This document shows positions 17,034 to 35,083 of a DNA stretch of 64,000 nucleotides, piece after piece; within the stretch, counting starts at the first letter, position 1; every line of letters starts with the position of its first letter. Source of the DNA: Acidobacteriota bacterium (GTDB taxonomy: Bacteria > Acidobacteriota > UBA890 > WLXD01). The notes under the pieces are model-generated. The model saw nothing but the letters and a program-made list of their open reading frames with translations, searched no databases and had not been told where the DNA came from. Location of the stretch: contig CAXWPL010000005.1 of NCBI GenBank assembly GCA_963666215.2, forward strand, positions 512,001 through 576,000, read 5' to 3'. A program made the position numbers and the translations under genes.

Positions 17034-18595
17034 GGAAGAGGGCGAGGTCGGAGACACAAGAATGTCGGAGTTGAGCAACAACGGTGCAGGAGACCACGAG
17101 GCCACCGGACGTCCGGTGCAGGGAGCCGGAGGCGACCGAAAGCGGACGTCGCGCGAGCCCGCGGTCCCGGCCCCCGACCCCCAGTTGGTCGAGCGATCAC
17201 GGCGCCGCAAGTTCACCGCCGAGTACAAGGTCCGGGTGGTGCGCGAGGCGGACGGGTGCTCGAAGCCCGGCGAGGTCGGCGCGCTGCTGCGGCGCGAGGG
17301 GCTGTACTCGTCGCATCTGTCGGTGTGGCGCAAGCAGCGTGACGCCGGGGCATTGGTGGCGCTGGCTAAGCTACGCGGCCGGCCGGCGCCCGATCCCCGA
17401 GACGCGCAGCTTGCCAACCTGCGTCGCCGAGCCGAGCGGGCCGAGGCGGAGCTCGAGAAGGCACGGCGAGTAATCGAGGTGCAGGGAAACGTCTCCGCGC
17501 TTCTGGGAGAGCTGCTCGAGCCCAGGGGCGCCAACGCGACTACCAAGCGATGATCGAGCAGACCGTCGAACAACTCACTCCCATCATCGGGACTCGCCCG
17601 GCGTGCCGGACGCTGGGCGCCTCGCACGCGACGATCTACCGCCGCCGTCGGCCGCCTGCGCGCCGACCGAGCCGTCCGCGGCCCAAGCCGGCGAGGGCGC
17701 TGTCGGAGCCTGAACGTCACGAGGTGCTCGCCGAGTTGCATAGTGAGCGCTTCGTCGACTGCGCTCCTGCCCAGGTATGGGCGACGCTGCTGGACGAAGG
17801 CCGCTACCTGGCATCGGAGCGCACGATGTACCGGATCCTCGCCGCCCAGGGCGAGGGCGGCGAGCGGCGCAACCAGCTCGTGCACCCGCCCTACAACAAG
17901 CCCGAGCTGCTCGCCGAGCGAGTCAATGAGGTGTGGTCGTGGGACATATCCAAACTGCGAGGCCCTGCCAAGTGGACCTACTTCTACCTGTACGTCATCC
18001 TCGACGTGTTCAGCCGCTACGTGGTGGGCTGGACTCTCCAGCACCGCGAGAGCGGTCCCTTGGCCGAGCAGCTCATCGACCAGGCGCTGCTCCAGCAACG
18101 CATCGGACCTGATCAGCTCACCATCCACGCCGACCGCGGCAGCTCGATGACCTCCAAGCCGGTCGCCTTCCTGCTCGCCGATCTCGGGGTCACCAAGACA
18201 CACTCGCGGCCCTACACCTCGTCGGACAATCCCTACTCGGAGGCCCACTTCAGGACGCTCAAGTACCGACCCGAGTTCCCTGCTCGCTTCGAGTCGATCG
18301 AACACGCCCGTCTCTTTTGCCGCATGTTCTTCCACTGGTACAACCACCAGCATCGCCACTCGGGCATCGGCCTGATGACTCCGGCGACGGTGCAGTATGG
18401 GCTCGCCCAGCAGACCCGCGACCGGCGTGCCGAAGTCCTGCTGGCCGCCTACCGGGCGCGACCTGAGCGCTTCGTCAACCACCCAACCCAGCCCGCCGGC
18501 GATCCCCACCGCCGTCTGGATCAACAAGCCTGCCACCCTCGAGAATGCTCACTAATTACTCGTGACCACCGTCTCATCCGCGTTGACAGGCACCG
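16986..18595 (+). mobile_element. IS3-family insertion sequence with 4-bp target duplication GCGC
   Basis: Imperfect 30-bp IRs; GCGC at 16982-16985 and 18596-18599; removing it restores LRERLRALGYVQ*. Confidence 0.88.
17062..17553 (+). CDS. IS3 transposase OrfA
   Basis: RRKFTAEYKVRVVREAD..LLRREGLYSSHL HTH. Confidence 0.85.
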   Translation: MSELSNNGAGDHEATGRPVQGAGGDRKRTSREPAVPAPDPQLVERSRRRKFTAEYKVRVVREADGCSKPGEVGALLRREGLYSSHLSVWRKQRDAGALVALAKLRGRPAPDPRDAQLANLRRRAERAEAELEKARRVIEVQGNVSALLGELLEPRGANATTKR

Positions 18596-18620
18596 GCGCG
18601 CTCTGGGTTACGTGCAGTAA
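17550..18620 (+). CDS. IS3 transposase OrfB (rve DDE); tail frameshifted near 18485
   Basis: WSWDI, LDVFSRYVVGW, HADRG, DNPYSEA; canonical AVWINKP tail is in the +1 frame. Confidence 0.88.
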   Translation: MIEQTVEQLTPIIGTRPACRTLGASHATIYRRRRPPARRPSRPRPKPARALSEPERHEVLAELHSERFVDCAPAQVWATLLDEGRYLASERTMYRILAAQGEGGERRNQLVHPPYNKPELLAERVNEVWSWDISKLRGPAKWTYFYLYVILDVFSRYVVGWTLQHRESGPLAEQLIDQALLQQRIGPDQLTIHADRGSSMTSKPVAFLLADLGVTKTHSRPYTSSDNPYSEAHFRTLKYRPEFPARFESIEHARLFCRMFFHWYNHQHRHSGIGLMTPATVQYGLAQQTRDRRAEVLLAAYRARPERFVNHPTQPAGDPHRRLDQQACHPRECSLITRDHRLIRVDRHRRALGYVQ

Positions 18621-18639
18621 CAATCGCCTGCGGCTGCCG

Positions 18640-20046
18640 GGGATGTCACAGGCTCCGTTGAAAAAGGGTGACGGTGATCCGACCTCGATAGTGTGTCGGG
18701 GTCAATCCACTGGCATGGAGGATCACCGTCATGAGCAAGAGTCGCAGAACAGAGACAAGTAGGAAAGCGGAGCGCCAAGAGAACCCGCTCCTGGAGGCAG
18801 TGGTAGCGGCGCGATCGGATCTACGAGCGCTGGTCATGGACGCGGGCTTCGGGGTGTTGGGTTCGCTGCTGGAAGAAGACCGGGCGGAGCTCTGCGGAGA
18901 GCGCTACGCGCGGTCACAGCAGCGGCGGGCGTACCGACACGGCTACGACGAGGGCTCGCTGGTGATGGGCGGCCGGCGGGTCAAGGTACGCAAGCCGCGG
19001 GCTCGGAGCGTCGATGGCCAAGAGCTGCCGCTGCCGCACTGGGAGAGGTTCAAGGCAACAGATCCGCTCGAAGAGCGCGCCGTAGAGCAGATCCTGTGCG
19101 GCGTCACGACGCGCAAGTACGAGCGCTCGTTAGAGCGGCTCGACGACGGGCGAGCTTCGTCGGGAACGAGTCGCTCGAGTGTGTCGCGGCGGTTCGTAGC
19201 GCGTACAGCCAAGCAGGTGCAGCAGTACCTGGCCCAACCGCTCAATGAAGTGGACCTGCCGGTGCTGGTGATCGACGGCACGCACATGGGCAAGCACTTG
19301 TTGGTGATCGCCATGGGCATCGACGCGGACGGCGTCAAGCATGTGCTGGGTGTCGTAGAGGGCACCACGGAGAGCTCCCACGTGTGCCGGTCGCTGCTGC
19401 GGCAGTTGATCGAGCGCGGCATGCCCGTCGAACGGGCGCGGTTGGTGGTAATCGATGGCTCCAAGGGCCTCCGTAAAGCAGTGCGCGACACGTTCGGCGA
19501 GTGGGCCCTGATCCAGCGCTGCCGTGTCCACAAGATCAAGAATGTATTGGAGCATCTGCCAGGGCATATCCGGCCCTGGTTCGCAGCCAAGATCCGCAAG
19601 GCGTGGAAGGCGGAGACGGCCACGGCAGCGACCAAGCAGCTCGACGCCGTGGTCAAGGAGCTGGAGACCGATCACCCCGGTGCAGCGGCCTCGCTCAGAG
19701 AAGGAATGCAAGAGACGCTCACCGTCACTCGGCTCCGAGTTCAGGGGCCGCTGCTTCGGACGTTACGTTCAACGAATACGATCGAGAACCTGAACGGGAC
19801 GATCAAACACGTCAGCCGCAACGTAAAGCGGTGGCGCTCCGGGAGCATGATCGTTCGATGGGCGGTTACTGCACTCATCGAGGCCGAGAGCAAGTTCCGG
19901 AGGGTTCGTGGCTACCGCGACATCGCCAAGCTCGATGCCGCACTCAACACCGCCGTCGACGTTCCCCTTGAGCAGGAGCGCCGTACTGCGTAACAATCCC
20001 CAACCACTTCACCGTCGCCTTAGTTCAACGGACGGTGGGACATCCC
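18640..20046 (+). mobile_element. IS256-family insertion sequence (no target duplication seen)
   Basis: IRs GGGATGTCnCAnnnTCCGTTGAA at both ends. Confidence 0.8.
18731..19993 (+). CDS. IS256 (Mutator) transposase
   Basis: GVTTRKY, VIDG, IDGSKGL, QRCRVHK, RSTNTIENLN. Confidence 0.92.
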   Translation: MSKSRRTETSRKAERQENPLLEAVVAARSDLRALVMDAGFGVLGSLLEEDRAELCGERYARSQQRRAYRHGYDEGSLVMGGRRVKVRKPRARSVDGQELPLPHWERFKATDPLEERAVEQILCGVTTRKYERSLERLDDGRASSGTSRSSVSRRFVARTAKQVQQYLAQPLNEVDLPVLVIDGTHMGKHLLVIAMGIDADGVKHVLGVVEGTTESSHVCRSLLRQLIERGMPVERARLVVIDGSKGLRKAVRDTFGEWALIQRCRVHKIKNVLEHLPGHIRPWFAAKIRKAWKAETATAATKQLDAVVKELETDHPGAAASLREGMQETLTVTRLRVQGPLLRTLRSTNTIENLNGTIKHVSRNVKRWRSGSMIVRWAVTALIEAESKFRRVRGYRDIAKLDAALNTAVDVPLEQERRTA

Positions 20047-20156
20047 CCCCGTGGGAGGGTCCCGGTAACCCACTGAAACAGCAGGAGTTACCCATTTACC
20101 CCTAGATCCCGCTGCCGGCGTTAGGGGTGTAACGCGAGCCATACGCGAGCGGATGC

Positions 20157-20611
20157 TCATTTCTTGGGCTGCTTGATGTGGTGCCGAGCGCTGCCAACCT
20201 GGAACCGGGCGCGGCGCTTCTTGCCCGTGTCGTTGGCAAAGACCCGGTACATCACCTCGCTGTCGCCGCTGCCCTTCTTGGGCGCAGCAACTTCACCCAT
20301 GAGGTGTCGCCGGGTCCAGGTACCCTGGCCTTCCAGGCGCAGCCGTCCGGAGCCATCACCATCGCCTCGAACTTGCCTCCGGCCTTGTCGGTCTTCTGGG
20401 CCCCAGGCGCCAGCGCAAACGTGCAGGGGCTAAACACGTACGCCGAGCCGGAGTTGGAACCACCGTCATCGTTGCCAAGGGCCCCCACCGCAGCCATGTC
20501 GCCAGAAATCGACACCGAGGAGCCGAGGGCGTCGCCGCCCGCCGCGTCCGAGGCCGTGAGCTTTTCCACCTCACCCCAGTTGTCCGCTCCACCCTCATTG
20601 CGGTCGAACAC
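20157..20611 (-). pseudogene. 5'-truncated FG-GAP repeat + BACON-like surface protein remnant
   Basis: KLTASDAAGGDALGSSVSISGD..GSAYVF; CAWKA..SWV, then after a frameshift near 20283 GSGDSEVMYRVFANDTGKKRRARFQVG. Confidence 0.65.
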
Positions 20612-20632
20612 AAACCGGCAGCATCGGCTTGC

Positions 20633-20932
20633 GTGAAGATCTCGCTTGCTAGCGAAGACGGCTCACGGAGCGACCCCATCTGGTATTTCTCCTACGGATG
20701 GGACAAGAACCCCCGGCAGCGCGGTGTCCGTTGCACGATTACACTGAAATGCCCGGATGGCGGGCTCGACGCTGAGGTTTACGTCGTCCGGAAGCCGCGA
20801 AGGTCTAAGGTCTATAGAGCACCGTCCTAGAGATATCTCCGCCATGTCATCGAGGGCTTGCGTTCGCCCGGTTATTCCGAGTCGGTGATCGACGAGGTGC
20901 GAGCGGTTGAGGCAAGCGAGCCCGTTGGCTAG
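20633..20932 (+). pseudogene. Gamma-glutamylcyclotransferase-like remnant
   Basis: WYFSYG..AEVYV..APS*RYLRHVIEGLR with in-frame TAG at 20828; middle of the domain missing. Confidence 0.5.
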
Positions 20933-20961
20933 CTTCGCGCGCCATCCAGAGGATCATCGCA

Positions 20962-21963
20962 GTGGATGTACGAGACGGCTTCGCCGCTACGGTGGGAAAC
21001 ACGCCACTCATCAAGCTCCGCATGGCGTCGGAGTTGACGGGCTGCGAGATCTACGGCAAGGCCGAGTTCCTGAATCCGGGAGGCTCGGTGAAGGACCGTG
21101 CGGCCCTCTACATGGTGCTGGACGCCGAGGAGGAAGGAAGGCTCGAGCCTGGCGGCGTCATCGTCGAGGGCACGGCGGGCAACACCGGGATCGGCCTGGC
21201 GCTGGTCGGAAACGCGCGCGGCTACCGGACCGTGATCACGATGCCCGAGACCCAGAGCCAGGAAAAGAAGGACATGCTGCTGCTGTGCGGCGTCGAGCTG
21301 CGCTGCGTGCCCGCGGTCCCGTTCAAGAATCCCGATCACTACGTCCACCAAGCGGAGCGACTCGCCAAGAACCTCGCCGGCGCCGAGCCGCACGGCGTCC
21401 TGTATGCCAACCAGTGGGACAACCTGTCGAACCGCAACGGGCACGCCCGCACCACGGGCCCCGAGATCTGGAGGCAGACCGACGGCAAGGTCGACGGCTT
21501 CACCTGCGCGATCGGCACCGGCGGGACTCTCGCAGGTGTCGGGATCTTCCTCAAGGAGCAGAATCCCGACATCAAGATCGTCGCCGCCGACCCGATGGGT
21601 GCGAGCATGTACCACTGGATCAAGCACGGAGAGCTCAAGAGCGAGGGATCCTCGATCACGGAGGGAATCGGGCAGGGGCGCGTCACCGGCAACATCGAAG
21701 GCGCTCCCATCGACGACGCCGTCCAGATCCCGGACGAGGAGATGCTGCCGATCGTCTTCGACCTGCTGAAGCACGAGGGCCTCTGCCTGGGTGGCTCGAG
21801 CGGCATCAACGTGGCCGGCGCCATCCGGCTCGCGAAGCAGCTGGGCCCCGGCCACACGATCGTGACCGTGCTGTGCGACTACGGGACCCGCTACCAGTCG
21901 AAGCTCTTCAACCCCACGTTCCTGAAGGAAAAGGGCCTGCCGGTTCCGAGCTGGCTCGATTGA
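20962..21963 (+). CDS. cysK: Cysteine synthase (PLP)
   Basis: VGNTPL, KAEFLNPGGSVKDR, GNTG, GTGGT, EGIG. Confidence 0.9.
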   Translation: MDVRDGFAATVGNTPLIKLRMASELTGCEIYGKAEFLNPGGSVKDRAALYMVLDAEEEGRLEPGGVIVEGTAGNTGIGLALVGNARGYRTVITMPETQSQEKKDMLLLCGVELRCVPAVPFKNPDHYVHQAERLAKNLAGAEPHGVLYANQWDNLSNRNGHARTTGPEIWRQTDGKVDGFTCAIGTGGTLAGVGIFLKEQNPDIKIVAADPMGASMYHWIKHGELKSEGSSITEGIGQGRVTGNIEGAPIDDAVQIPDEEMLPIVFDLLKHEGLCLGGSSGINVAGAIRLAKQLGPGHTIVTVLCDYGTRYQSKLFNPTFLKEKGLPVPSWLD

Positions 21964-22268
21964 CGCATTGGAACGTCGGCTGACCTTTGGTCACACAGCA
22001 GCCGCCGAGCATCGCAAGCATGCCGCCCGCAGGAGTCCATGTAATGAGTGGCGAAAGAAACTCGTTGGCTCGCGCACAAGTGCACAGACGGCCAACATGT
22101 ACAGCCCCGTGCTCGGCGAGGACTAGCGTCGCATCACCAACGAAGGCGACAGCGAGAGGGCCGCTGACGCCGATGGCAGCGCAAGCGACGCAAGCAGACG
22201 AATAACCAGCAAAACGAAAGCTGCCGACCTCGTAGGCGTAAAGCCTTCAAGATCAGCGGCTTACGGAG

Positions 22269-22314
22269 TGGCGGGGGCCAGATTCGAACTGGCGACCTTC
22301 GGGTTATGAGCCCG
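22269..22314 (-). tRNA. 3' half of initiator tRNA-Met(CAT)
   Basis: CGGGCTCATAACCCGAAGGTCGCCAGTTCGAATCTGGCCCCCGCCA: anticodon arm with GGG/CCC, T arm and acceptor strand. Confidence 0.88.
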
Positions 22315-22890
22315 TGATCGAGAGATCCCGTCCATACCCATTGCCCGCACCAGCTTATCGACCTTTCGGGTCGACACACCCAGTACGTACGCCTCAGCTA
22401 CGGCTGAGACCACCGCGTGCTCGGCACGGCGTCGCGGCTCGATCAGGAAGTCCGGGAAGTACGCCCCTTCCCGCACCTTCGGGATCGCCAGTTGGATGGT
22501 CCCGGCCCGCGTGTCCCAGGGCCGCGTGCGGTAACCGTTGCCGGCTGTTGGTGCGCTCGGTCGTCCGGGTCCCGTACGCGGCACCGCAGTGAGCATCGAC
22601 GTCCTCGCTCATCAGCACCTGGGCGAACGCCTCCACCATTTCACGTAGTTGATCGCCGTCATGTTCGGCGAGTCCCTTGCCAACCCACTGTGCGGCGGGC
22701 ATCTTGGTATCGGTCACTGGTTGTTCTCCTTGGTAGGAAGTTCTTCTGTGCAAACCAAGGATCGATCAGTGACCACCTTTTCTTCAAGGGTGCCGCTCGC
22801 CGTGGAAACTGTGCAAAACGCTCCGCGTTTCACACAAGTTCCCACCGCCCTGCTGCTACTGCTTCATACACCACGTCCCCGGGACTCTAC
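22315..22890 (-). mobile_element. Truncated IS256-family element (left end plus 5' part of transposase, frameshifted)
   Basis: RNGYRTRPWDTRAGTIQLAIPKVREG..GVSTRKV; cut exactly at the tRNA half. Confidence 0.85.
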
Positions 22891-22903
22891 TGCGCTCCTC
22901 CTA

Positions 22904-24420
22904 TCAAGTTCCGCAGAAGGTCCGATAACGTCCGAAGCTGGCTGGCGCCGGCGCTGCGTAGGCTTCCAGCCCCTCCTTCTCGTCGAAGGGATTCTCGAGA
23001 ACCTCGAGTAGATTCTCGAAGGGCAAGAGGTCCTGAGATTCGGCTGCGGCGGTCAAGGCCTCCTCGACCTTGTGGTTGCGCGGGATGTAGATCGGGTTCA
23101 CCCGGTCCATTTCGGCATGGGTTTCCGCACGAGCTTGGGCACGAGCTTCGCCGCTCACGCTCTCACTGCACATCCTCGTCCGCCAACGAGCCGCCCAAAG
23201 ATCGTAGGCGGAAGCATCGTCTAGAAGTGCCCGTAGCGGGGCATCGTTGCCTCGGACCGCGTCTGACAGACGCCGGAAGGCAAGCGTGTAGTCGGCGTTT
23301 TTGGCCTTCCAGCGCGGCAAGGAAACCGTTCGCCAGCTCGAGATCGTCATCCTCCGAACCCGAGAGTCCCAGCTTGGTCCGCATTCCGTCGAGCCAGTAC
23401 GCGGCATATTGATCGAGGAAGCCGTTGACGGCCTCGCTGGCGAGCTCGAGTGCCCGATCGGTGTCGGCATCGATCAGTGGGAGGAGCGTCTCGGCGAGCC
23501 TGGCGAGGTTCCAGCCCGCGATCAATGGCTGCTGGCTGTAGGCATAGCGGCCTTGCGCGTCCGATCGAACTGAAGACCGCGTTCGGATCGTACGTATCGA
23601 CGAACGCGCACGGCCCGTAGTCGATCGTCTCTCCCGAGATCGTCATGTTGTCGGTGTTCATGACGCCGTGGACGAAGCCAACGTGCATCCAGCGCGCGAT
23701 CAGTTGAGCCTGGGCGTCGCACACTGCCACCAGGAATCCGAGGTACAGGCTATCGGATCCATCGGGTCTATCGGATCCGCGAAGCTCTGGATAGTGGCGC
23801 GCGATGCTGTAGTCGGCGAGCTGCCGTACCTTTCCGACCTCGCCGCGCGCGGCGAAGAACTGGAAGGTACCGATTCGGATGTGGCTGGCCGCGACGCGCG
23901 TCAGCACAGCTCCCGGGAGCTCCTTTTCTCGAGCGATCCGCTCCCCGGTCGTCACGGCGGCGAGCGCTCGGGTGGTAGGGATCCGTAGGGCGTGCATCGC
24001 TTCACTGACCAGGTACTCTCGCAACACCGGACCGATTGTGGCCTTGCCATCTCCTCCACGCGAGAATGCGGTGCGACCTGAGCCCTTGAGCTGGATATCG
24101 CGACGCCTGCCGCTACGGTCAACCACTTCGCCCAGAAGCAGCGCGCGACCATCGCCGAGCCGCGGCACAAAACCGCCAAATTGGTGCCCGGCATATGCCT
24201 GGGCCAACGGGCTGGCGCTTTCGGGCGTTTCGTTGCCCGCGAAGACCGCGGCACCATGGTCGGAAGTGAGCACGTCCGGATCGAGGCCGAGCTCTAGAGC
24301 AAGAGGGCGGTTCAGCTTCATGAGGCGCGGATGCGGCACCTCGGCCGCCTCCGAAGGCACATAGAAACCGGGAAGCTCACGCGCGTACGTGTTGTCGAAG
24401 TCGAACCCGGCGGTCGGCAT
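22904..24420 (-). pseudogene. selO: Protein adenylyltransferase SelO/YdiU with two 1-nt frameshifts (near 23560 and 23300)
   Basis: [45 protein letters not shown]-terminal TFCGT. Confidence 0.88.
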
Positions 24421-24699
24421 CTGACGCTCCTCGATTTCGGCACTGCGAACGGCATGGTGAAGTCGGCCACGAGCGGGCGTATCTCGAATCTCGAGATCCG
24501 GGTAGATCGCCCTGAGTTGTTCGGCGGTCAGCGGTCCCTAGCTGTCCACCGCGGCTCGCTTGAGGACTGCATTGCGGGGAGGGCGACGACAATACCGCCG
24601 ATGTAGCTCGGGCGGACGCACCCTCTCCGTAGCGATGCCCTGCGCAACAAAGAACCGCCGTGGGCGAAGGTCGGTTGTTGACCTGATCAGCTCGGCTCC

Positions 24700-24737
<38 letters not shown>

Positions 24738-24750
24738 ACCAAGAGCGCAA

Positions 24751-24779
24751 ACACTACGACGGCGCCTAGTGCCGGTCAA
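24751..24779 (-). promoter_or_regulatory. Sigma70 promoter of the tRNA
   Basis: TTGACC-N17-TAGTGT ending 13 nt before the tRNA 5' end. Confidence 0.7.
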
Positions 24780-24821
24780 GAGGCACCGAACGCCGTCGAG
24801 GTGCTGTATCGCGATGTTGTG

Positions 24822-25010
24822 TTACATCGAGATGAAGTCGTGACCACGGACAGTCTTGCGGCCATTGGACTTGGCGCGCTTGCTGGCCTGCTCGAGGTAC
24901 CAGTGGACGACCATGTTGAGTGCGTCGAGCGCGTCGCCGGCCACGTTACAGCCGTGTGCCTTGAGAGCGCTCTTGGTCTTGCTGCCCACGAGAAGCATCT
25001 CACCGTTCAT
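24822..25010 (-). CDS. Bacterial histone-fold protein (62 aa)
   Basis: LLVGSKTK..GDALDALN..AKSNGRKTVRGHDF matches the prokaryotic histone RxTVxxxD signature. Confidence 0.85.
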   Translation of the reverse strand: MNGEMLLVGSKTKSALKAHGCNVAGDALDALNMVVHWYLEQASKRAKSNGRKTVRGHDFISM

Positions 25011-25177
25011 GCTCTATCCCCCGTTGCGAGTGGTCGACCCGCGATCGTCGAGATCGTTCGCCAACGGCCACCCGTCGGCTCGAGTCGCCGACCACCCCAT
25101 GATGAAACCCCACAACCTGAGGCGTATTCTGCCAGAAAATACGCTGTAGGCTAGCCCTCCGGGCGTTTTCCGACGTT

Positions 25178-27913
25178 TTAGCTTCCGCCGCTCTCGCCGG
25201 CCGCCGCCGCTCCCAGCTCCTCGAGACGTCGCCGGGCGTCGGTAAATCGCTGCCGCAGGCGGGGGATTTCGGCCTCGCCGTAGGCCTGCAGCAGCCGGCG
25301 CTCAGCCACGTCGAGCGCCGCGCGCAGCTCGGTCGCAGCGCGCTGCCGCGCGCCCGGCTCGGTGCTGGCGCGCTCGCCGATCCAGATTGGCGCGGTGTGC
25401 GCGAACGGGTAGCTGTCCATCGCCGGCCACATCACCTCGCCACCGTGAGCCCTGACCGCAATCCAGCCTCCTGCTGGAAGTTCCAGATCGCCGGTGATGA
25501 TCCGACTCCCAGACGCTGCCAAGCCCGACTCGGTGTGCACAACCGCGCCGTTGACGACGATCTCCACGCGCTCGACGGGCAGAGCGCTGAACAGCCGCAG
25601 CTCGTAGCGAGCTCGTTGGAAAGAGCCGGGCCGCGGGCCAACTCGGGAGGCGGAAGCCGAGGCCGAAGTCGAAGCCGCCGGGGAGCCTGCCGCGAGAACG
25701 TCACCGGGCTGGACTCCCTCGCCTGCTGAAGAGCCCGCGGCGAACAGGCGCAGGTCGAGCAGCGGTCCGTTGGTCACGAAGCTGCGACCGGCGCGTAGCG
25801 CGTCGAGGTAGCTCTCGAAGCTGAGCTCACCGTCGGGGCGTGTGTAGACGCGCGTCGTCCCGATGGCCATCGTGCGATAGAAGTTCGCCATGATGTCGGT
25901 GCCGGCGCTCAGCGCCACGGGCATGCCGATATTCAAGAAGCGATACCACAGCTCGGCCGTACCGAGCTCGTCGCTCCACAGGCAAGCAACTTCGAGCGCG
26001 TCGAGGTCACCGAGAACGGCGTCGGGAATGATGCCGACGGGAATCGACGCCAGACGCGCCGCGCCGGCAGGGGTGCCGAGATCAGCCGCCTCGGGGAACG
26101 GGTCGGGGCGGCTCACCGGGTGCACGTACATGCCGACGCCGCCCTCATCACGTCCGTGCTGCAGCGCCACGGCGTTAGGGCGGTCGTCATCGCCGTACAC
26201 CGAATAGCCGGGGCCCCAGATCCACGGCCAGAACAGCGTCTTGGTGCCCACAAGGCCGAGGTGACCGAGGAAGTGAGAGCGGATCTCCTGGGCGAAGCGA
26301 AGAATCGGAGCGCGGTCACCGTTCTCCCAGCCCCACCATTCGACATCCTCGAAGCGGTTGTGCAGGTTGGCCAGCAGCGGCGTCGCAACATCTATCGACT
26401 CGGCACGTAGCGGCAGCAGCAGGTCGTTCGGCCGTAGCGAGTATGGACCGCCGTAATTGAGGTGGAAGTGGTGGTCGCCGGAGTACCAGCCCTCGGTGCG
26501 CGGATCCCAAACCTCCTCGAGCTCGATATCGACAACCGTGGTCTGGTCGGCAACAACGTCGATCGGGCGCTCCACGGCTGGCGTCGTCAAGCCACGCACC
26601 GCGAGCACGCGCGCCTGCCCGGCGGGAAGTGTCATTTCAATCGAGCCGTCGGAGTAGAAGTACGCTAGGCCGTTCTGCCCGTCGAAACGGATCGGCGTGC
26701 GGTCGGGGACCACGGGATGGCCCTGGGCGTCGGCGACGTGCAAGCGTGACGCGCTGTATCCGGGCTGTCCCCGCAGCCGGGTGCGAACACGAAGGCGACC
26801 GGTGGGCACACCCCAGTCCCAGCGGTCGATCGAGATCGTCGTGGCCTCACCGCCTTCAATGCCGATCCGCTTGAGCTCGAAGCGCTGCTGCGCGTCGGGC
26901 TCCACGAACAGCACGGCGTCGCCGGAGGCGCTCCAGGTTGGCGTTTGGGGTAGCCCAACAGCGGCGCCGGGAGCGTTCGGCAGCAGCCGAATCATTGTCT
27001 GCGGCTCGTTGGTGTCGAGCAGCGAGAGCTCCCAGCCACGCTCCCCCGGGTGTCCGAGGGCAACGAGGCCGCCCGAACTGAGCGCCGGGCGCGTTTGCGC
27101 GGCGATCCGCTCACTCCACAGCACAGTCTCTGAACCCTCGGCGTCGCGGGCGCGCAGCTCATCGATGCCACCGCGGGTCTTGGCCAGGTAAACAACGCCG
27201 CCATTCGGGCCGGGGCGGGGCGCCAGCTCGAGCCCGGGGTCGCTGGTGATCCGCAGCTGTTCCTCGCCGGGACGCTGGCGCCACAGATCGATCGTCCCGG
27301 CCTCCGCCGACGAGTACCACAGCGTGCCGTCGGGCGCGAAGGCCGGATCGAGGTCGAGAGCCTTCGTATCAACGAGAACGTCCTCGCTGCCACTCGCCAG
27401 ATCGAGCGCGACGATGGACGTATCGGACGTGTCGTCGCGAACAAACACCAAGCGGTCGCCAGACGGCGACCAGGCCACCCGCGCGTCCACTCCCCCGGCG
27501 CTCGTAACCCGACGTGCAACGCGTGGTGAAACATCCTCCGCCAGCGGCATCACCCAAATCCAGCCGGCCGAGGCGAACGCCACGCTCTGCCCATCGGGCG
27601 ATACCGCGGGGTCGATGGGGCCCTGCGTCAGCGTGGGTAGGTTGTAGCCCTCGAGATAAACATGGTGGTTGTAGCCTTCGACCTTCGGATAGCGGTTCGT
27701 CCACTGCGCCGCTGCTGGCCGCGTGCCCGCCGCCGATATCAAGCCCGCCAGCGCGAGGATGGCCGCAACACCGATGCGCGCCCCGCGCTTCGTGGCGCTC
27801 GAGCAACCAGGATCGGGGTTGGGGCTGGGTGTGACGCTCGTTCGCCAGAACCTCATGTCGGACCTCATCATGTCGGACCTCATCGAGTTTTCGACACCTG
27901 CGCTCGGCTCCAC
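25178..27913 (-). CDS. PD40/TolB propeller + CehA/McbA (PHP-like) metallohydrolase, exported (start uncertain)
   Basis: PAVSPDGQSVAF, WSPSGD repeats; WYSGDHHFH, HLGL, SAGTD, GRSFVTNGP. Confidence 0.82.
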   Translation of the reverse strand: MEPSAGVENSMRSDMMRSDMRFWRTSVTPSPNPDPGCSSATKRGARIGVAAILALAGLISAAGTRPAAAQWTNRYPKVEGYNHHVYLEGYNLPTLTQGPIDPAVSPDGQSVAFASAGWIWVMPLAEDVSPRVARRVTSAGGVDARVAWSPSGDRLVFVRDDTSDTSIVALDLASGSEDVLVDTKALDLDPAFAPDGTLWYSSAEAGTIDLWRQRPGEEQLRITSDPGLELAPRPGPNGGVVYLAKTRGGIDELRARDAEGSETVLWSERIAAQTRPALSSGGLVALGHPGERGWELSLLDTNEPQTMIRLLPNAPGAAVGLPQTPTWSASGDAVLFVEPDAQQRFELKRIGIEGGEATTISIDRWDWGVPTGRLRVRTRLRGQPGYSASRLHVADAQGHPVVPDRTPIRFDGQNGLAYFYSDGSIEMTLPAGQARVLAVRGLTTPAVERPIDVVADQTTVVDIELEEVWDPRTEGWYSGDHHFHLNYGGPYSLRPNDLLLPLRAESIDVATPLLANLHNRFEDVEWWGWENGDRAPILRFAQEIRSHFLGHLGLVGTKTLFWPWIWGPGYSVYGDDDRPNAVALQHGRDEGGVGMYVHPVSRPDPFPEAADLGTPAGAARLASIPVGIIPDAVLGDLDALEVACLWSDELGTAELWYRFLNIGMPVALSAGTDIMANFYRTMAIGTTRVYTRPDGELSFESYLDALRAGRSFVTNGPLLDLRLFAAGSSAGEGVQPGDVLAAGSPAASTSASASASRVGPRPGSFQRARYELRLFSALPVERVEIVVNGAVVHTESGLAASGSRIITGDLELPAGGWIAVRAHGGEVMWPAMDSYPFAHTAPIWIGERASTEPGARQRAATELRAALDVAERRLLQAYGEAEIPRLRQRFTDARRRLEELGAAAAGESGGS

Positions 27914-28893: not shown

Positions 28894-29478
28894 CTCGGCC
28901 CAACCGCGCCCACGCAGCGTGGCGCCGGGATCAGTCGCGCGTCAGCCCGCGGTACACCAATCGCATGAACCGCTCGTTGTCGATGACGGTCGAGCGCGGC
29001 CAGCCAGACCTTCGGCTGATCTGCCAGGCCGTCAGTCGCCGCCGACGTAGCTTGTCGATCTGCCTCACAACTCCAGCGCTTGTTGCGTGCGGACAGCACG
29101 TCGGCCGGCTTGATCGATCGAGCAGCCCGGCCTCACCTTCTCGCTCGTATCTATCCAGCCACTTGTAAACCGTTCGGCCGACACGCCGAGCGCCGCCGCC
29201 GTTTCCGTCACGGGCTCCGCCCGCTCCCGGCTCGGCGGACCATCTCTCGGCGTATATACGGCATCGTGCGGGCGTTACCATGCAGCTGCATCGGGCGCTC
29301 CTTCTGAGGTCGTGGAGTCTTTTGAACAACCCCATTGATCTCAGAAGTGAGTCGATGTGAACAACCTACTTAGAAAACACACCTAGCTCGGCCCAACCGC
29401 GCCCACGCAGCGTGGCGCCGGGATCAGTCGCGCGTCAACCGCGGTACACCAATCGCATGAACCGCTCGTTGTCGATGA
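28889..29478. repeat. About 98-bp direct repeat (28889-28986 and 29382-29478) around an IS481 fragment
   Basis: Near-identical copies, both starting at CCTAGC. Confidence 0.9.
28987..29381 (-). mobile_element. IS481 5' fragment, near-identical to 53718-54116
   Basis: Same IR and RTVYKWLDRYEREGEAGLLDRSSRP coding sequence, with small indels. Confidence 0.88.
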
Positions 29479-32803: not shown

Positions 32804-35083
32804 CTACCACATTTCTCGAATTTTGGAGGCGACGTCTACAACCTGAGAAGGTGCGGCGACCTCCGCAACAGACGGCGCAGCACCCACAACCGGCGATCTC
32901 GCGGGCGCCGGCGCGCGGCGCGAAACCAGGTCGAAGCACTGCGTCACAGGATCCCCCAGAAACCGCGAGCGCGGCGCATATAGATGCCGGTCGCCAAGCG
33001 GGCGCTGCTCGGTCACGTAGAAACGCAGCGGCTGAATCAGATGCAGCTCGTTGCGGGCGCGTGTCATGGCTACGTAGAGCAGCCGGCGCTCCTCCTCCAC
33101 CTGTGAGGCGTTGGCGACGGCCATGTCGGAGGGAATGCAGCCGTCCACCACGTTGAGCACGTGGACGCTGTGCCACTCCTGGCCCTTGGCCGAATGAATC
33201 GTCGACAGAATCAAATAGTCCTCGTCGAGGTGCGTGTCGGCGGCCCAGTCGCCGGTGGCTCCCGGAGGATCGAGCGTCAGCTCGGCGAGAAACCGCGCGC
33301 GGGTCGAGTAGCCGGCGGCAACACGTTCGATTTGCTCCAGGTCGCCGGCGCGTAGAACCGCCTGCTCGGCCGGAAACAGGCGCTCGAGCTGTTCCTCGTA
33401 CCAGCCACGAAGCCGCCGCACGTCGTCGGGCCAGGCGGCATCCTGAGCGACGGCGAGATCGGTCAGCAGGGCGGCAAACTCGGGCCAGCGAGCGAGCGGG
33501 TGCTCGACCACGGGTCCCCCCGGAGCGCTCGATGCGGCGCCCCCCGTTGAACCCGACCCGATCGCGCCCAGCCCTCCCATCTGCTCAATCTGTTGCTGCA
33601 CGCGCCGGGCTCCACGCGGCCCTACCTCGGGCAGCAGCTGCAGCGCGCGGAACGAGGCCAGGCCATCGAGCGGGTTCTCTAGCCAACGAAGCAGGCACAG
33701 CAGGTCCTTGACGTGCGCCGCCTCGAGGAACCGCAGCCCACCGTACTTCACGAACGGGATATTCAGTCGCGTGAGCTCGAGCTCGAGCACATCGCTGTGG
33801 TGCGCGGTGCGGAACAGCACCGCCTGGCGGCGTAGATCCACGCCCGACTCTCGCGCTGCCAGAACACGATCGGCAACGTAGGCCGCCTGTGCGGCATCGT
33901 CCTCCACCTCGACGAGGCGCGGTAGGGCCGACGCCGTGGCCGTGGCCGGGTCTTCCGAGTGCGAGTGCAAGCGCGAGTGCGACCGCAGCTCCTTGACGAT
34001 GCCCTCGGTCGCCTGCCGTGATACCGCGTTGGCGGCATCGAGAATCGGCTGCACCGACCGGTAGTTGTCCTCCAGCTTCACCACAGCGGCCGCTGGATCG
34101 AAGCGTTCGGCAAACGTCAGGATGTTGCGAACGCTCGAGCCGCGGAATGAATAGATCGCCTGAGCGTCGTCGCCGACCACCGTGATGCCGTCGCGACGCG
34201 GCCGCAGCGCCATGAGGATCTCGGCCTGCAGAGCGTTGGTGTCCTGGTACTCGTCCACGAGAACGTGATCGAAAAGGTCCGCAATTCGCGCCACGGCCGC
34301 CGGCTGTTCCATCAAGTGCGCCCAGTAAAGAAGCAGGTCGTCGTAGTCGAGCACGCAGCGTCGCTGCTTGGCCTCGACGTAGGCACGGAACAGCCGGCGC
34401 AGTGCCGGCTCGTGGTCGGCGCACCAGGGATAAGCCTCATCCAGACAGGCATCGAGCGACAGCCGCGCGTTGACGCAGCGCGAATAGATCGACAGACAGG
34501 TCCCCTTACGCGGCACCCGGCGACGTTGATTGGCGAGCCCGAGGCGCTGGCGCTCGAGATCCATCAGATCCTCGGCATCACCGCGATCGAGCACGGTGAA
34601 GGTGGGCACCAAGCCGATGGCGCCGCCGAAGTGTCGCAGCAAGCGAGCGCCCACCGAATGGAACGTGCCCGACCACGGCAGGTAGGCGTCGGCGGGCACG
34701 CTGCCGGTACGCACCACGCTCCCGAGACGCTGGCCCGCGGAGGCGGTCGAGCTTGGCCCGCCAGAGCCGGCAACGCCACTCAGCGCCAGGATCCGACTGG
34801 CGCGACGGCCCATCTCTCGCGCCGCCCGGCGGGTGAACGTCAGCAGCAGCAACCGACGCGGATCGAGGCCGTAGCGCGCCAGCTCGGCGGCGCGATGCGC
34901 AAGGGTCAGCGTCTTGCCGGTACCGGCGCCCGCGAGTATCAGCAGAGGGTCGACGCGGCGCACATCACCCCCGGAGCCCAGGCCGTAGGTGGCGGCGCGC
35001 AGCTGCGAGGCGTTGAGGCGCGCTGTCGCCCTGGAGGCGGAGGCGGATGACAGCGAGCTCATGGTGGGTCGATCGTACACCAC
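32804..35083 (-). CDS. UvrD/REP-family ATP-dependent helicase
   Basis: AGAGTGKT, VDEYQDTN, VGDDAQAIYSFRG, NYRS, STIHSAKGQEW, EERRLLYVAMTRA. Confidence 0.93.
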   Translation of the reverse strand: MVYDRPTMSSLSSASASRATARLNASQLRAATYGLGSGGDVRRVDPLLILAGAGTGKTLTLAHRAAELARYGLDPRRLLLLTFTRRAAREMGRRASRILALSGVAGSGGPSSTASAGQRLGSVVRTGSVPADAYLPWSGTFHSVGARLLRHFGGAIGLVPTFTVLDRGDAEDLMDLERQRLGLANQRRRVPRKGTCLSIYSRCVNARLSLDACLDEAYPWCADHEPALRRLFRAYVEAKQRRCVLDYDDLLLYWAHLMEQPAAVARIADLFDHVLVDEYQDTNALQAEILMALRPRRDGITVVGDDAQAIYSFRGSSVRNILTFAERFDPAAAVVKLEDNYRSVQPILDAANAVSRQATEGIVKELRSHSRLHSHSEDPATATASALPRLVEVEDDAAQAAYVADRVLAARESGVDLRRQAVLFRTAHHSDVLELELTRLNIPFVKYGGLRFLEAAHVKDLLCLLRWLENPLDGLASFRALQLLPEVGPRGARRVQQQIEQMGGLGAIGSGSTGGAASSAPGGPVVEHPLARWPEFAALLTDLAVAQDAAWPDDVRRLRGWYEEQLERLFPAEQAVLRAGDLEQIERVAAGYSTRARFLAELTLDPPGATGDWAADTHLDEDYLILSTIHSAKGQEWHSVHVLNVVDGCIPSDMAVANASQVEEERRLLYVAMTRARNELHLIQPLRFYVTEQRPLGDRHLYAPRSRFLGDPVTQCFDLVSRRAPAPARSPVVGAAPSVAEVAAPSQVVDVASKIREMW

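Follow-up and report, generated by a model that had tools for sequence, protein, structure and literature searches.

A face-to-face-type histone beside a split initiator tRNA gene in an acidobacterium that also encodes HU

The characterization of bacterial histones is recent and has to date been confined to Bdellovibrio and Leptospira. Among them, histones of the face-to-face (FtF) type are described as forming a ring-like tetramer in which two dimers contact each other through a conserved arginine and a conserved asparagine at the end of the α2 helix (R48 and N52 of the HMM; R49 and N53 of HLp, where R55 acts together with them), and they harbor an RxTxxxxD motif whose arginine and aspartic acid form an intramolecular clamp (PMC11390915, PMC12701072). 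In the sections of PMC12701072 that treat HLp of Leptospira perolatii (Hu et al. 2025; structures 9QT0-9QT2), R49, N53 and R55 are given as conserved in tetrameric FtF histones, the archaeal HTkC is presented as tetrameric, and HLp is proposed to be the principal nucleoid protein of a genome stated to lack HU and Dps. HBb (Bd0055) of Bdellovibrio bacteriovorus (8CMP, 8FVX, 9EZZ) is described as a DNA-bending dimer (PMC10627809), and the account in PMC11390915 has bacterial dimer histones such as HBb lack R48 and N52. The DUF1931 pseudodimers of Thermus (1WWI) and Aquifex (1R4V) also adopt the histone fold but are, as PMC12701072 describes them, fused doublets devoid of the DNA-binding residues.

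Here we analyzed a small open reading frame (ORF) in a 64-kb stretch of acidobacterial DNA, referred to below as the window, whose features are collected in Table 1. A reading of the letters alone (the sequence-only reading) had taken it for a basic singlet histone, and the gene bears this out: the product has a calculated mass of 6.7 kDa and pI of 9.65, with LLVGSK at residues 6-11, GDA..LN at 25-32 and NGRKTVRGHDF at 49-59. Because a TAG stands in frame at 25014-25016, two codons upstream of the ATG, the histone has no N-terminal tail and is a tail-less singlet. Its GC3 is 0.825, compared with 0.69-0.81 in four measured neighbors, and its codon usage resembles that of the neighbors. A genome search showed it to be the sole histone gene of its genome, in which two PF00216 (HU/IHF) genes are also present. 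Between the stop codon of the preceding gene, which encodes a 911-aa PD40 protein, and the histone gene lies an AT-rich palindrome (25122-25144, minus strand) with 7-nt arms, GCGTATT and AATACGC, and a 9-nt loop; it sits just upstream of the point, 25092, at which an RNA-library contig ends, and could be a terminator or an operator.

Table 1. Features at the histone locus, in window coordinates
Feature	Position	Strand	Basis or content
Histone gene, 62 aa, α3-truncated FtF-type fold	24822..25010, stop codon included	-	ORF list, structure matches, models
Shine-Dalgarno-like GGGGGA, 6 nt before the histone ATG	25017..25022 (25022->25017)	-	Direct reading
5' tRNA-Met(CAT) fragment, 38 nt, initiator-type	24700..24737 (24737->24700)	-	Sequence reading and in-silico completion
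Intervening segment, 2,386 nt	22314..24699	-	SelO in two frames and N-terminal third of an IS256-family transposase (Pfam SelO, Transposase_mut)
3' tRNA-fMet fragment, 9-nt repeat plus 37 nt	22268..22313	-	Anticodon stem 3' strand, T arm, acceptor 3' strand

An AlphaFold2 model of the protein, built on an alignment of 87 homologues (alignment A1), has a mean pLDDT of 94.3 and contains helices at residues 9-17 and 27-48, the latter being the long central helix anticipated from the letters, and a third helix of one turn at 57-60, which together make up a histone fold with a one-turn α3. When the protein was compared with the PDB using phmmer, HLp (9QT0) ranked first, with an E value of 1.6e-8 and an ungapped alignment over residues 4-59, and HBb and HTkC (9F2C) were found with E values of 1.6e-4 and 0.007. 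The profile of the 87 homologues matched HLp at E 2.1e-24 (88.5 bits), HBb at 2.1e-15 (59.7 bits), HTkC 9F2C at 6.1e-14 and the archaeal histone HMfA at 1.6e-4. Foldseek likewise returned HLp as the top match of the model (TM 0.88/0.97, rmsd 0.5 Å, 43% identity), with HBb second at a TM of about 0.85 and HTkC at 0.83; nucleosomal, NF-Y and eukaryotic histones scored lower, at TM 0.56-0.74, and the best structural matches are all α3-truncated histones. The likeness to Bd0055 and the Leptospira histones that the sequence-only reading had pointed to is thus found in sequence and in structure. On the single protein, the only Pfam match was a sub-threshold one to CENP-T_C (15.5 bits, cut-off 28.1), and the NCBIfam match to archaea_histone NF043032 was also sub-threshold (15.6 bits, cut-off 50). 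DUF1931 (PF09123), which had been put forward as a family to search, gave no match to the histone at E<=10 and matches only 5 of the 87 homologues at E<=0.01, and PF00808 (CBFD_NFYB_HMF) matches 12 of the 87 and not the window histone; NCBI nevertheless often labels relatives of the window histone "DUF1931 domain-containing protein." The ORF at 24822..25010 encodes a histone-fold protein.

HLp was used as the reference for residue-by-residue comparison. The solved HLp chain is two residues longer than the native protein, and position q of the window histone corresponds to q+4 of native HLp, a register obtained by setting the chain numbers of the phmmer alignment against the residue numbers of PMC12701072. 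R49, N53 and R55 of HLp align without gaps to R45, N49 and R51. At the tetramer contacts described for HLp, R49, S52, N53, R55, T61 and F63, the window histone has R45, S48, N49, R51, H57 and F59, five of the six being identical. The HLp clamp, R55-D62, corresponds to R51-D58, and the RxTxxxxD motif is present as R51-K-T53-V-R-G-H-D58. The nine HLp residues described as contacting DNA phosphates, A13, S14, K15, K17, K21, T27, G29, T56 and T57, are matched by G9, S10, K11, K13, K17, V23, G25, K52 and T53, of which six are identical to their HLp counterparts (S10, K11, K13, K17, G25 and T53); A13->G9, T27->V23 and T56->K52 are the changed DNA-contact positions, and T61->H57 is the changed tetramer contact. 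Among the 87 homologues, D58 is invariant, and L31, A42, R45, N49, R51, T53 and V54 are each kept in at least 90%.

These correspondences add to a wider resemblance between the two proteins as HLp is described in PMC12701072: they align over 56 residues and share the one-turn α3, the R/S/N/R/F tetramer residues, the RD clamp, the S-K "paired ends of helices" motif, the α1 lysines and the GDA..LN segment, and a dimer-of-dimers was modeled here (see below). In contrast to HLp, the window histone carries, besides the four substitutions, a three-residue C-terminal extension, its genome encodes the two HU/IHF proteins, and its locus has none of the SMC, MAP or DUF350 neighbors described for the HLp locus. 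HBb is alike in its truncated fold, as described in PMC10627809, in its similar size, and in its GRKTV loop and S-K motif. However, HBb is only 33% identical, lacks the dimer-dimer arginine and asparagine, with serine and aspartic acid at the positions of R45 and N49 in the phmmer alignment, and also lacks the GDA..LN and terminal DF features, both of which HLp has. The earlier judgment, based on these two features, that the protein stands closer to the Leptospira FtF type is therefore sustained. HTkC of Thermococcus kodakarensis belongs to the FtF class as well, but differs from the window histone in that it is archaeal, is 35% identical, and comes from a genome that also encodes nucleosomal histones.

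Modeling of four copies produced an assembly of the expected kind. The four-copy model scored 0.91 in three of three runs, the best of three controls reaching 0.09; among proteins of solved structure, 20 of 30 one-chain pairs and 1 of 23 single chains attain this mark, counts that serve only as a rough guide here, as this model used its own alignment and four copies instead of two. Agreement between the runs extends to at least 97% of the contacts, and the partner pLDDT is at least 92. In the model, the scored copy packs along its full length against one mate, which corresponds to the histone dimer, and is predicted to contact a third copy through residues 41, 44-45, 48-49, 55, 57-58 and 60-62. 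This modeled third-copy contact region is the FtF interface region of HLp, giving a dimer-of-dimers through residues 41-62, and the model places the three extra C-terminal residues (ISM) in the interface. As the modeling tool itself warns, so high a score may arise because tetramers of HLp and HTkC have already been solved; the model therefore indicates likeness rather than binding.

Collectively, the protein carries the diagnostic R/N/R residues and the RxTxxxxD motif, together with a predicted homotetramer, and the α3 of the model is as short as the 3-4 residues by which Schwab et al. 2024 (PMC11390915) delimit the α3-truncated histones. Three other classes were considered and rejected. The HBb-type dimer class does not fit a protein in which both the arginine and the asparagine are present and a tetramer is modeled; the DUF1931 pseudodimer class does not fit a 62-aa singlet, rather than a doublet, that has no PF09123 match; and the archaeal nucleosomal class does not fit a protein that falls below the NF043032 cut-off, has no PF00808 match and ends in a one-turn α3. 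The window histone therefore displays all the FtF features that are open to sequence analysis and modeling and departs from the dimer, DUF1931 and nucleosomal ones. It belongs to the FtF class already described, of which HLp was structurally and biophysically characterized before.

The histone has many relatives. A word-indexed protein search recovered 280 homologues at E<=0.01, the best 120 of which, with the window protein itself left out, are 73-86% identical to it, and when cluster representatives were searched exhaustively, 244 matched at E<=1e-3 and 57 of these at E<=1e-10. The source names among the best 120 listed homologues include Acidobacteriota, Planctomycetota and Deltaproteobacteria, and loci of relatives with 58-85% identity also bear the labels Myxococcota, Nitrospirales and others. 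Named records with the closest histones are MAGs labeled Acidobacteriota (85% identity at best) and Planctomycetota, and the same genes occur in genomes assigned to the window's own order; both point to Acidobacteriota as the phylum of the window. One homologue with a tail, P0106, is attributed by one source to "Acidobacteria bacterium Mor1" and lies on a 5.99-Mb contig. The patchy distribution that had been supposed is evident within the phylum, where 25 of the 401 sampled genomes, the window's own included, have a match. With the own genome left out, 1 of 10 family members and 9 of 15 genomes of the sister family have a match. At least 10 residues precede the fold in 44 of the 87 aligned homologues, whereas the window histone has no such extension; the longest extensions, of up to 46 residues, are rich in K and R and recall histone tails. 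The highest-scoring cluster representatives (P0121-P0131 and others) are 118-132 aa long and match in two stretches; these are fused doublets of the FtF-like unit, distinct from the DUF1931 label as far as tested.

The gene neighborhood is not shared. No tRNA-CAT gene lies beside the histone in any of 77 related loci, taken with up to 3 kb of flanking sequence (about 69 are distinct, since eight or more seem to be duplicates of contigs already counted), and the synteny with tRNA-fMet that had been proposed as a check is accordingly not found. In four genomes from the family, orthologues of the upstream PD40 protein likewise lack a tRNA in their vicinity, and ten window proteins (a sulfatase, SelO, PD40, a metallo-beta-lactamase, UvrD and others) have no tblastn match in the 77 loci. 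In seven distinct acidobacterial loci (L003, L006, L007, L011, L012, L028 and L075), the histone gene is followed by a gene for a VTC-domain protein (PF09359) and one for a DUF4956 membrane protein, and in most of the seven it is preceded by a gene for a 930-aa Sortilin/BNR protein. The window does not have this conserved VTC/DUF4956 neighborhood, by which the histone is linked to a module of the polyphosphate type. A histone tree of 68 rows has too few columns, with 3 of its 64 inner branches starred, and supports no claim of transfer. Phage records contained no histone match. Among plasmid records, only eight haloarchaeal megaplasmids (H1-H8) match, at 44-52% identity and with DUF1931 or DNA-binding protein as the annotation; large archaeal replicons are thus further carriers of FtF-type histones.

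The window itself is rich in mobile elements. An rve integrase gene at 17550-18620 (Pfam) and an IS256-type element at 18731-19993 (plus strand; Transposase_mut, E 4.7e-46) lie on one side of the histone locus, together with a truncated IS256 transposase (22261-22596), and an IS481-like HTH fragment lies at 28931-29335. About 30 genomic sites match window positions 19000-20049 along 1,000 nt or more, and identity is 97-100% at most of them and about 93% at seven; the matching part of the IS256-type element is its last 1,049 nt, and these copies point to a recent burst of one insertion sequence. The SelO gene (protein adenylyltransferase; 22904-24420, minus strand) falls into two frames that overlap (23347-24420 and 22904-23470). 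Relative to the window, run X1 contigs are one base short at each of 22541, 22877, 23298 and 23561, and some of the frameshifts in the SelO region may be assembly indels or differences between two copies of the segment. Further away, a UvrD-like helicase gene (32804-35083, minus strand) has its closest named relatives mostly in Burkholderiales and other proteobacteria, at 45-54% identity across most of its length, and not in Acidobacteriota; it is uninformative as a marker of the phylum and may be an acquisition from another source.

The sequence-only reading had placed the histone gene directly upstream of tRNA-fMet. A 38-nt fragment of such a tRNA does begin 84 nt after the histone stop codon, but an intact gene is absent, ARAGORN reporting 0 tRNA genes in the 64-kb window. 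The fragment comprises the acceptor 5' strand, the D arm and the anticodon stem with its GGG and ends within the anticodon loop (...CTCATA), where at 24699 the sequence switches abruptly to unrelated DNA; positions 24700-24737 are the only copy of the tRNA-fMet 5' half in the assembly. The tRNA continues 2.39 kb beyond the 5' part, where its other 37 nt (22304->22268) belong to a 3' fragment that abuts the truncated transposase ORF. A 9-nt direct repeat (24700-24708 and 22305-22313) brackets the intervening DNA, and in-silico removal of 22305-24699 gives a 75-nt tRNA-Met(CAT) by ARAGORN. ARAGORN with intron or pseudogene options reported no tRNA in 24480-24800, and neither a tRNA nor a group I/II intron was matched when 23800-25400 was scanned against Rfam by E value. 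An intron reading of the split tRNA was dropped on account of these two null results, and inserted or rearranged DNA is favored.

A 6.07-kb segment, 18635-24699, recurs 94 kb away on the same contig (C5:436340-442411) with 99.65% identity, and the right edge of this duplication falls exactly within the anticodon loop of the tRNA fragment; in the second copy, 110 nt separate this edge from a further partial tRNA-fMet 3' part that precedes it. In all, the assembly contains three tRNA-fMet 3' parts, one in the window (22313->22268) and two on C5, near 440028 and near 442631. These last two, along with a copy of just the anticodon arm, are located within or next to the segment's second copy, a pattern of the kind left by serial integrations at a tRNA gene. 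Across the whole assembly (5 contigs, 4.65 Mb, 91.7% complete), ARAGORN found 50 tRNAs, with no intact initiator tRNA and no tRNA-Trp, and the only two CAT tRNA genes are elongator-like and Ile2-like by sequence reading. A missing copy or a misjoin is the likeliest reason for the lack of an intact initiator tRNA. A bolder reading would have the split gene serve, in two pieces, as the only initiator tRNA of the cell; in an assembly that is about 92% complete and also lacks tRNA-Trp, this is much less likely. With respect to the histone, the tRNA-fMet fragment is an accidental neighbor brought there by genome rearrangements and not a functional partner.

Contigs assembled from sequencing runs provide a further view of the locus. 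A 367-nt contig from an RNA library (run X15) equals 24727-25092 without a difference and takes in the whole histone ORF together with 82 nt of upstream sequence and, at its other end, 11 nt of the tRNA fragment. Contigs do not reveal where a transcript begins or stops, and this one is a weak hint of histone expression and of read-through into the tRNA fragment. RNA runs X17-X20 have smaller shares, that of X20, labeled sponge metagenome, being 0.12, and they do not enter into any reading of habitat. Among the contigs of four runs, none listed bridges the junction of 24699 and 24700, because contigs break inside the tRNA, a sequence common to many organisms. Runs X6 and X8 cover the flanks, 21500-22310 and 24710-25600, at similar depth and leave most of 22322-24470 without cover, which is no proof of absence; the same holds for RNA run X15, in which 25199-25600 and 22322-23554 are without cover. 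One X8 contig joins 22314 to 24722 via 10 other letters. It differs from the D-arm letters common to the window and another X8 contig (24710-25600) and may derive from another organism or another copy.

Taken together, we consider it quite likely that the protein is a bacterial histone of the α3-truncated FtF class that forms an HLp-like tetramer and acts as a probable accessory nucleoid protein beside HU. By homology to HLp, at 43% identity, two head-to-tail dimers would close into a ring-like tetramer; the basic rim of this tetramer would, as in HLp, bind DNA without sequence preference and wrap roughly 60 bp of it; and such wrapping would compact the nucleoid. Because the genome has two HU/IHF genes and most genomes searched in its own family have no match, the histone is probably accessory to HU rather than the sole organizer. 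With HU present, a global chromatin role of the histone is not required.

The readings that compete with this one differ in what they take from the same data. That the ORF arose by chance, or is a decayed gene in a degenerating region, would accord with the broken SelO and transposase genes and the split tRNA around it, but the frame is intact and preceded by a ribosome-binding site, every nearly invariant family residue is retained, and the identical sequence occurs in runs of 10 studies, as it does without difference in the RNA-library contig; the homologue searches and the 87-sequence conservation refute this reading in practice, and we give it next to no weight. It is also unlikely that the protein works in the cell as a dimer that bends DNA in the manner of HBb/Bd0055, with no wrapping tetramer. 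The GRKTV loop and SK motif common to HBb, and the rank of HBb as second-best structural match (TM about 0.85), are in line with such a dimer, as are the T61->H57 change at an HLp contact and the three-residue extension at the modeled interface. R45 and N49, however, are present as in HLp and in at least 90% of the 87 homologues, where HBb has S and D, and it is the lack of this arginine and asparagine that marks bacterial dimers in the account of PMC11390915. The homologue profile also scores 88.5 bits to HLp against 59.7 to HBb, and the four-copy model 0.91 against 0.09 for the best control, possibly through memory of solved complexes.

A further reading is a specialized histone-fold protein that coats or silences insertion sequences and other foreign DNA, or has a local role with neighbors such as the VTC/DUF4956 genes found in relatives. 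Given the IS-rich site without synteny to relatives, a specialized role is conceivable, and several observations lean toward it: the patchy spread (1/10 in the own family, 9/15 in the sister family, 25/401 in the phylum including the own genome), the HU/IHF genes in the genome, the IS256, rve and IS481 remnants around the locus with the roughly 30 genomic matches to the IS256-type element, the lack of any neighbor common to the 77 related loci, the seven distinct acidobacterial loci in which VTC and DUF4956 genes follow the histone, and the position of the window copy, in a poorly resolved tree, outside the clade of its own family's copy. We nonetheless regard this reading as improbable. A core that is 73-86% identical among the best 120 listed homologues, from several phyla, speaks for a constrained, generic DNA-binding surface; the codon usage of the histone resembles that of its neighbors; there are no phage matches, and the plasmid matches are confined to haloarchaeal megaplasmids; and nothing links the histone to a particular partner in its own genome. 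A broader idea would make FtF histones a mobile accessory chromatin module, held in Acidobacteriota beside HU, in some lineages only, and relocatable, which in this genome stands at an initiator-tRNA integration hot spot and is maybe read through into the tRNA; this we think very unlikely.

The advance made by the accessory FtF reading is incremental, as the class is known. It is mildly new in its setting: "acidobacteri" has 0 occurrences in the main texts of PMC11390915 and PMC10627809 (their taxon-listing supplements lie outside this search), the searched sections of PMC12701072 do not mention Acidobacteriota, and a literature search for "FtF histone" with "Acidobacteri" returned no papers. 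The phylum is thus one that the searched main texts do not cover, and the coexistence of such a histone with HU, its high conservation across phylum labels, and the N-terminal extensions carried by half of the homologues and missing in the window copy are likewise mildly new. The locus shows an intact and probably expressed gene of the tetrameric FtF type in an acidobacterium, free-living or host-associated, that has retained HU. If Mor1 is culturable, what the histone adds to an HU-based nucleoid could be tested.
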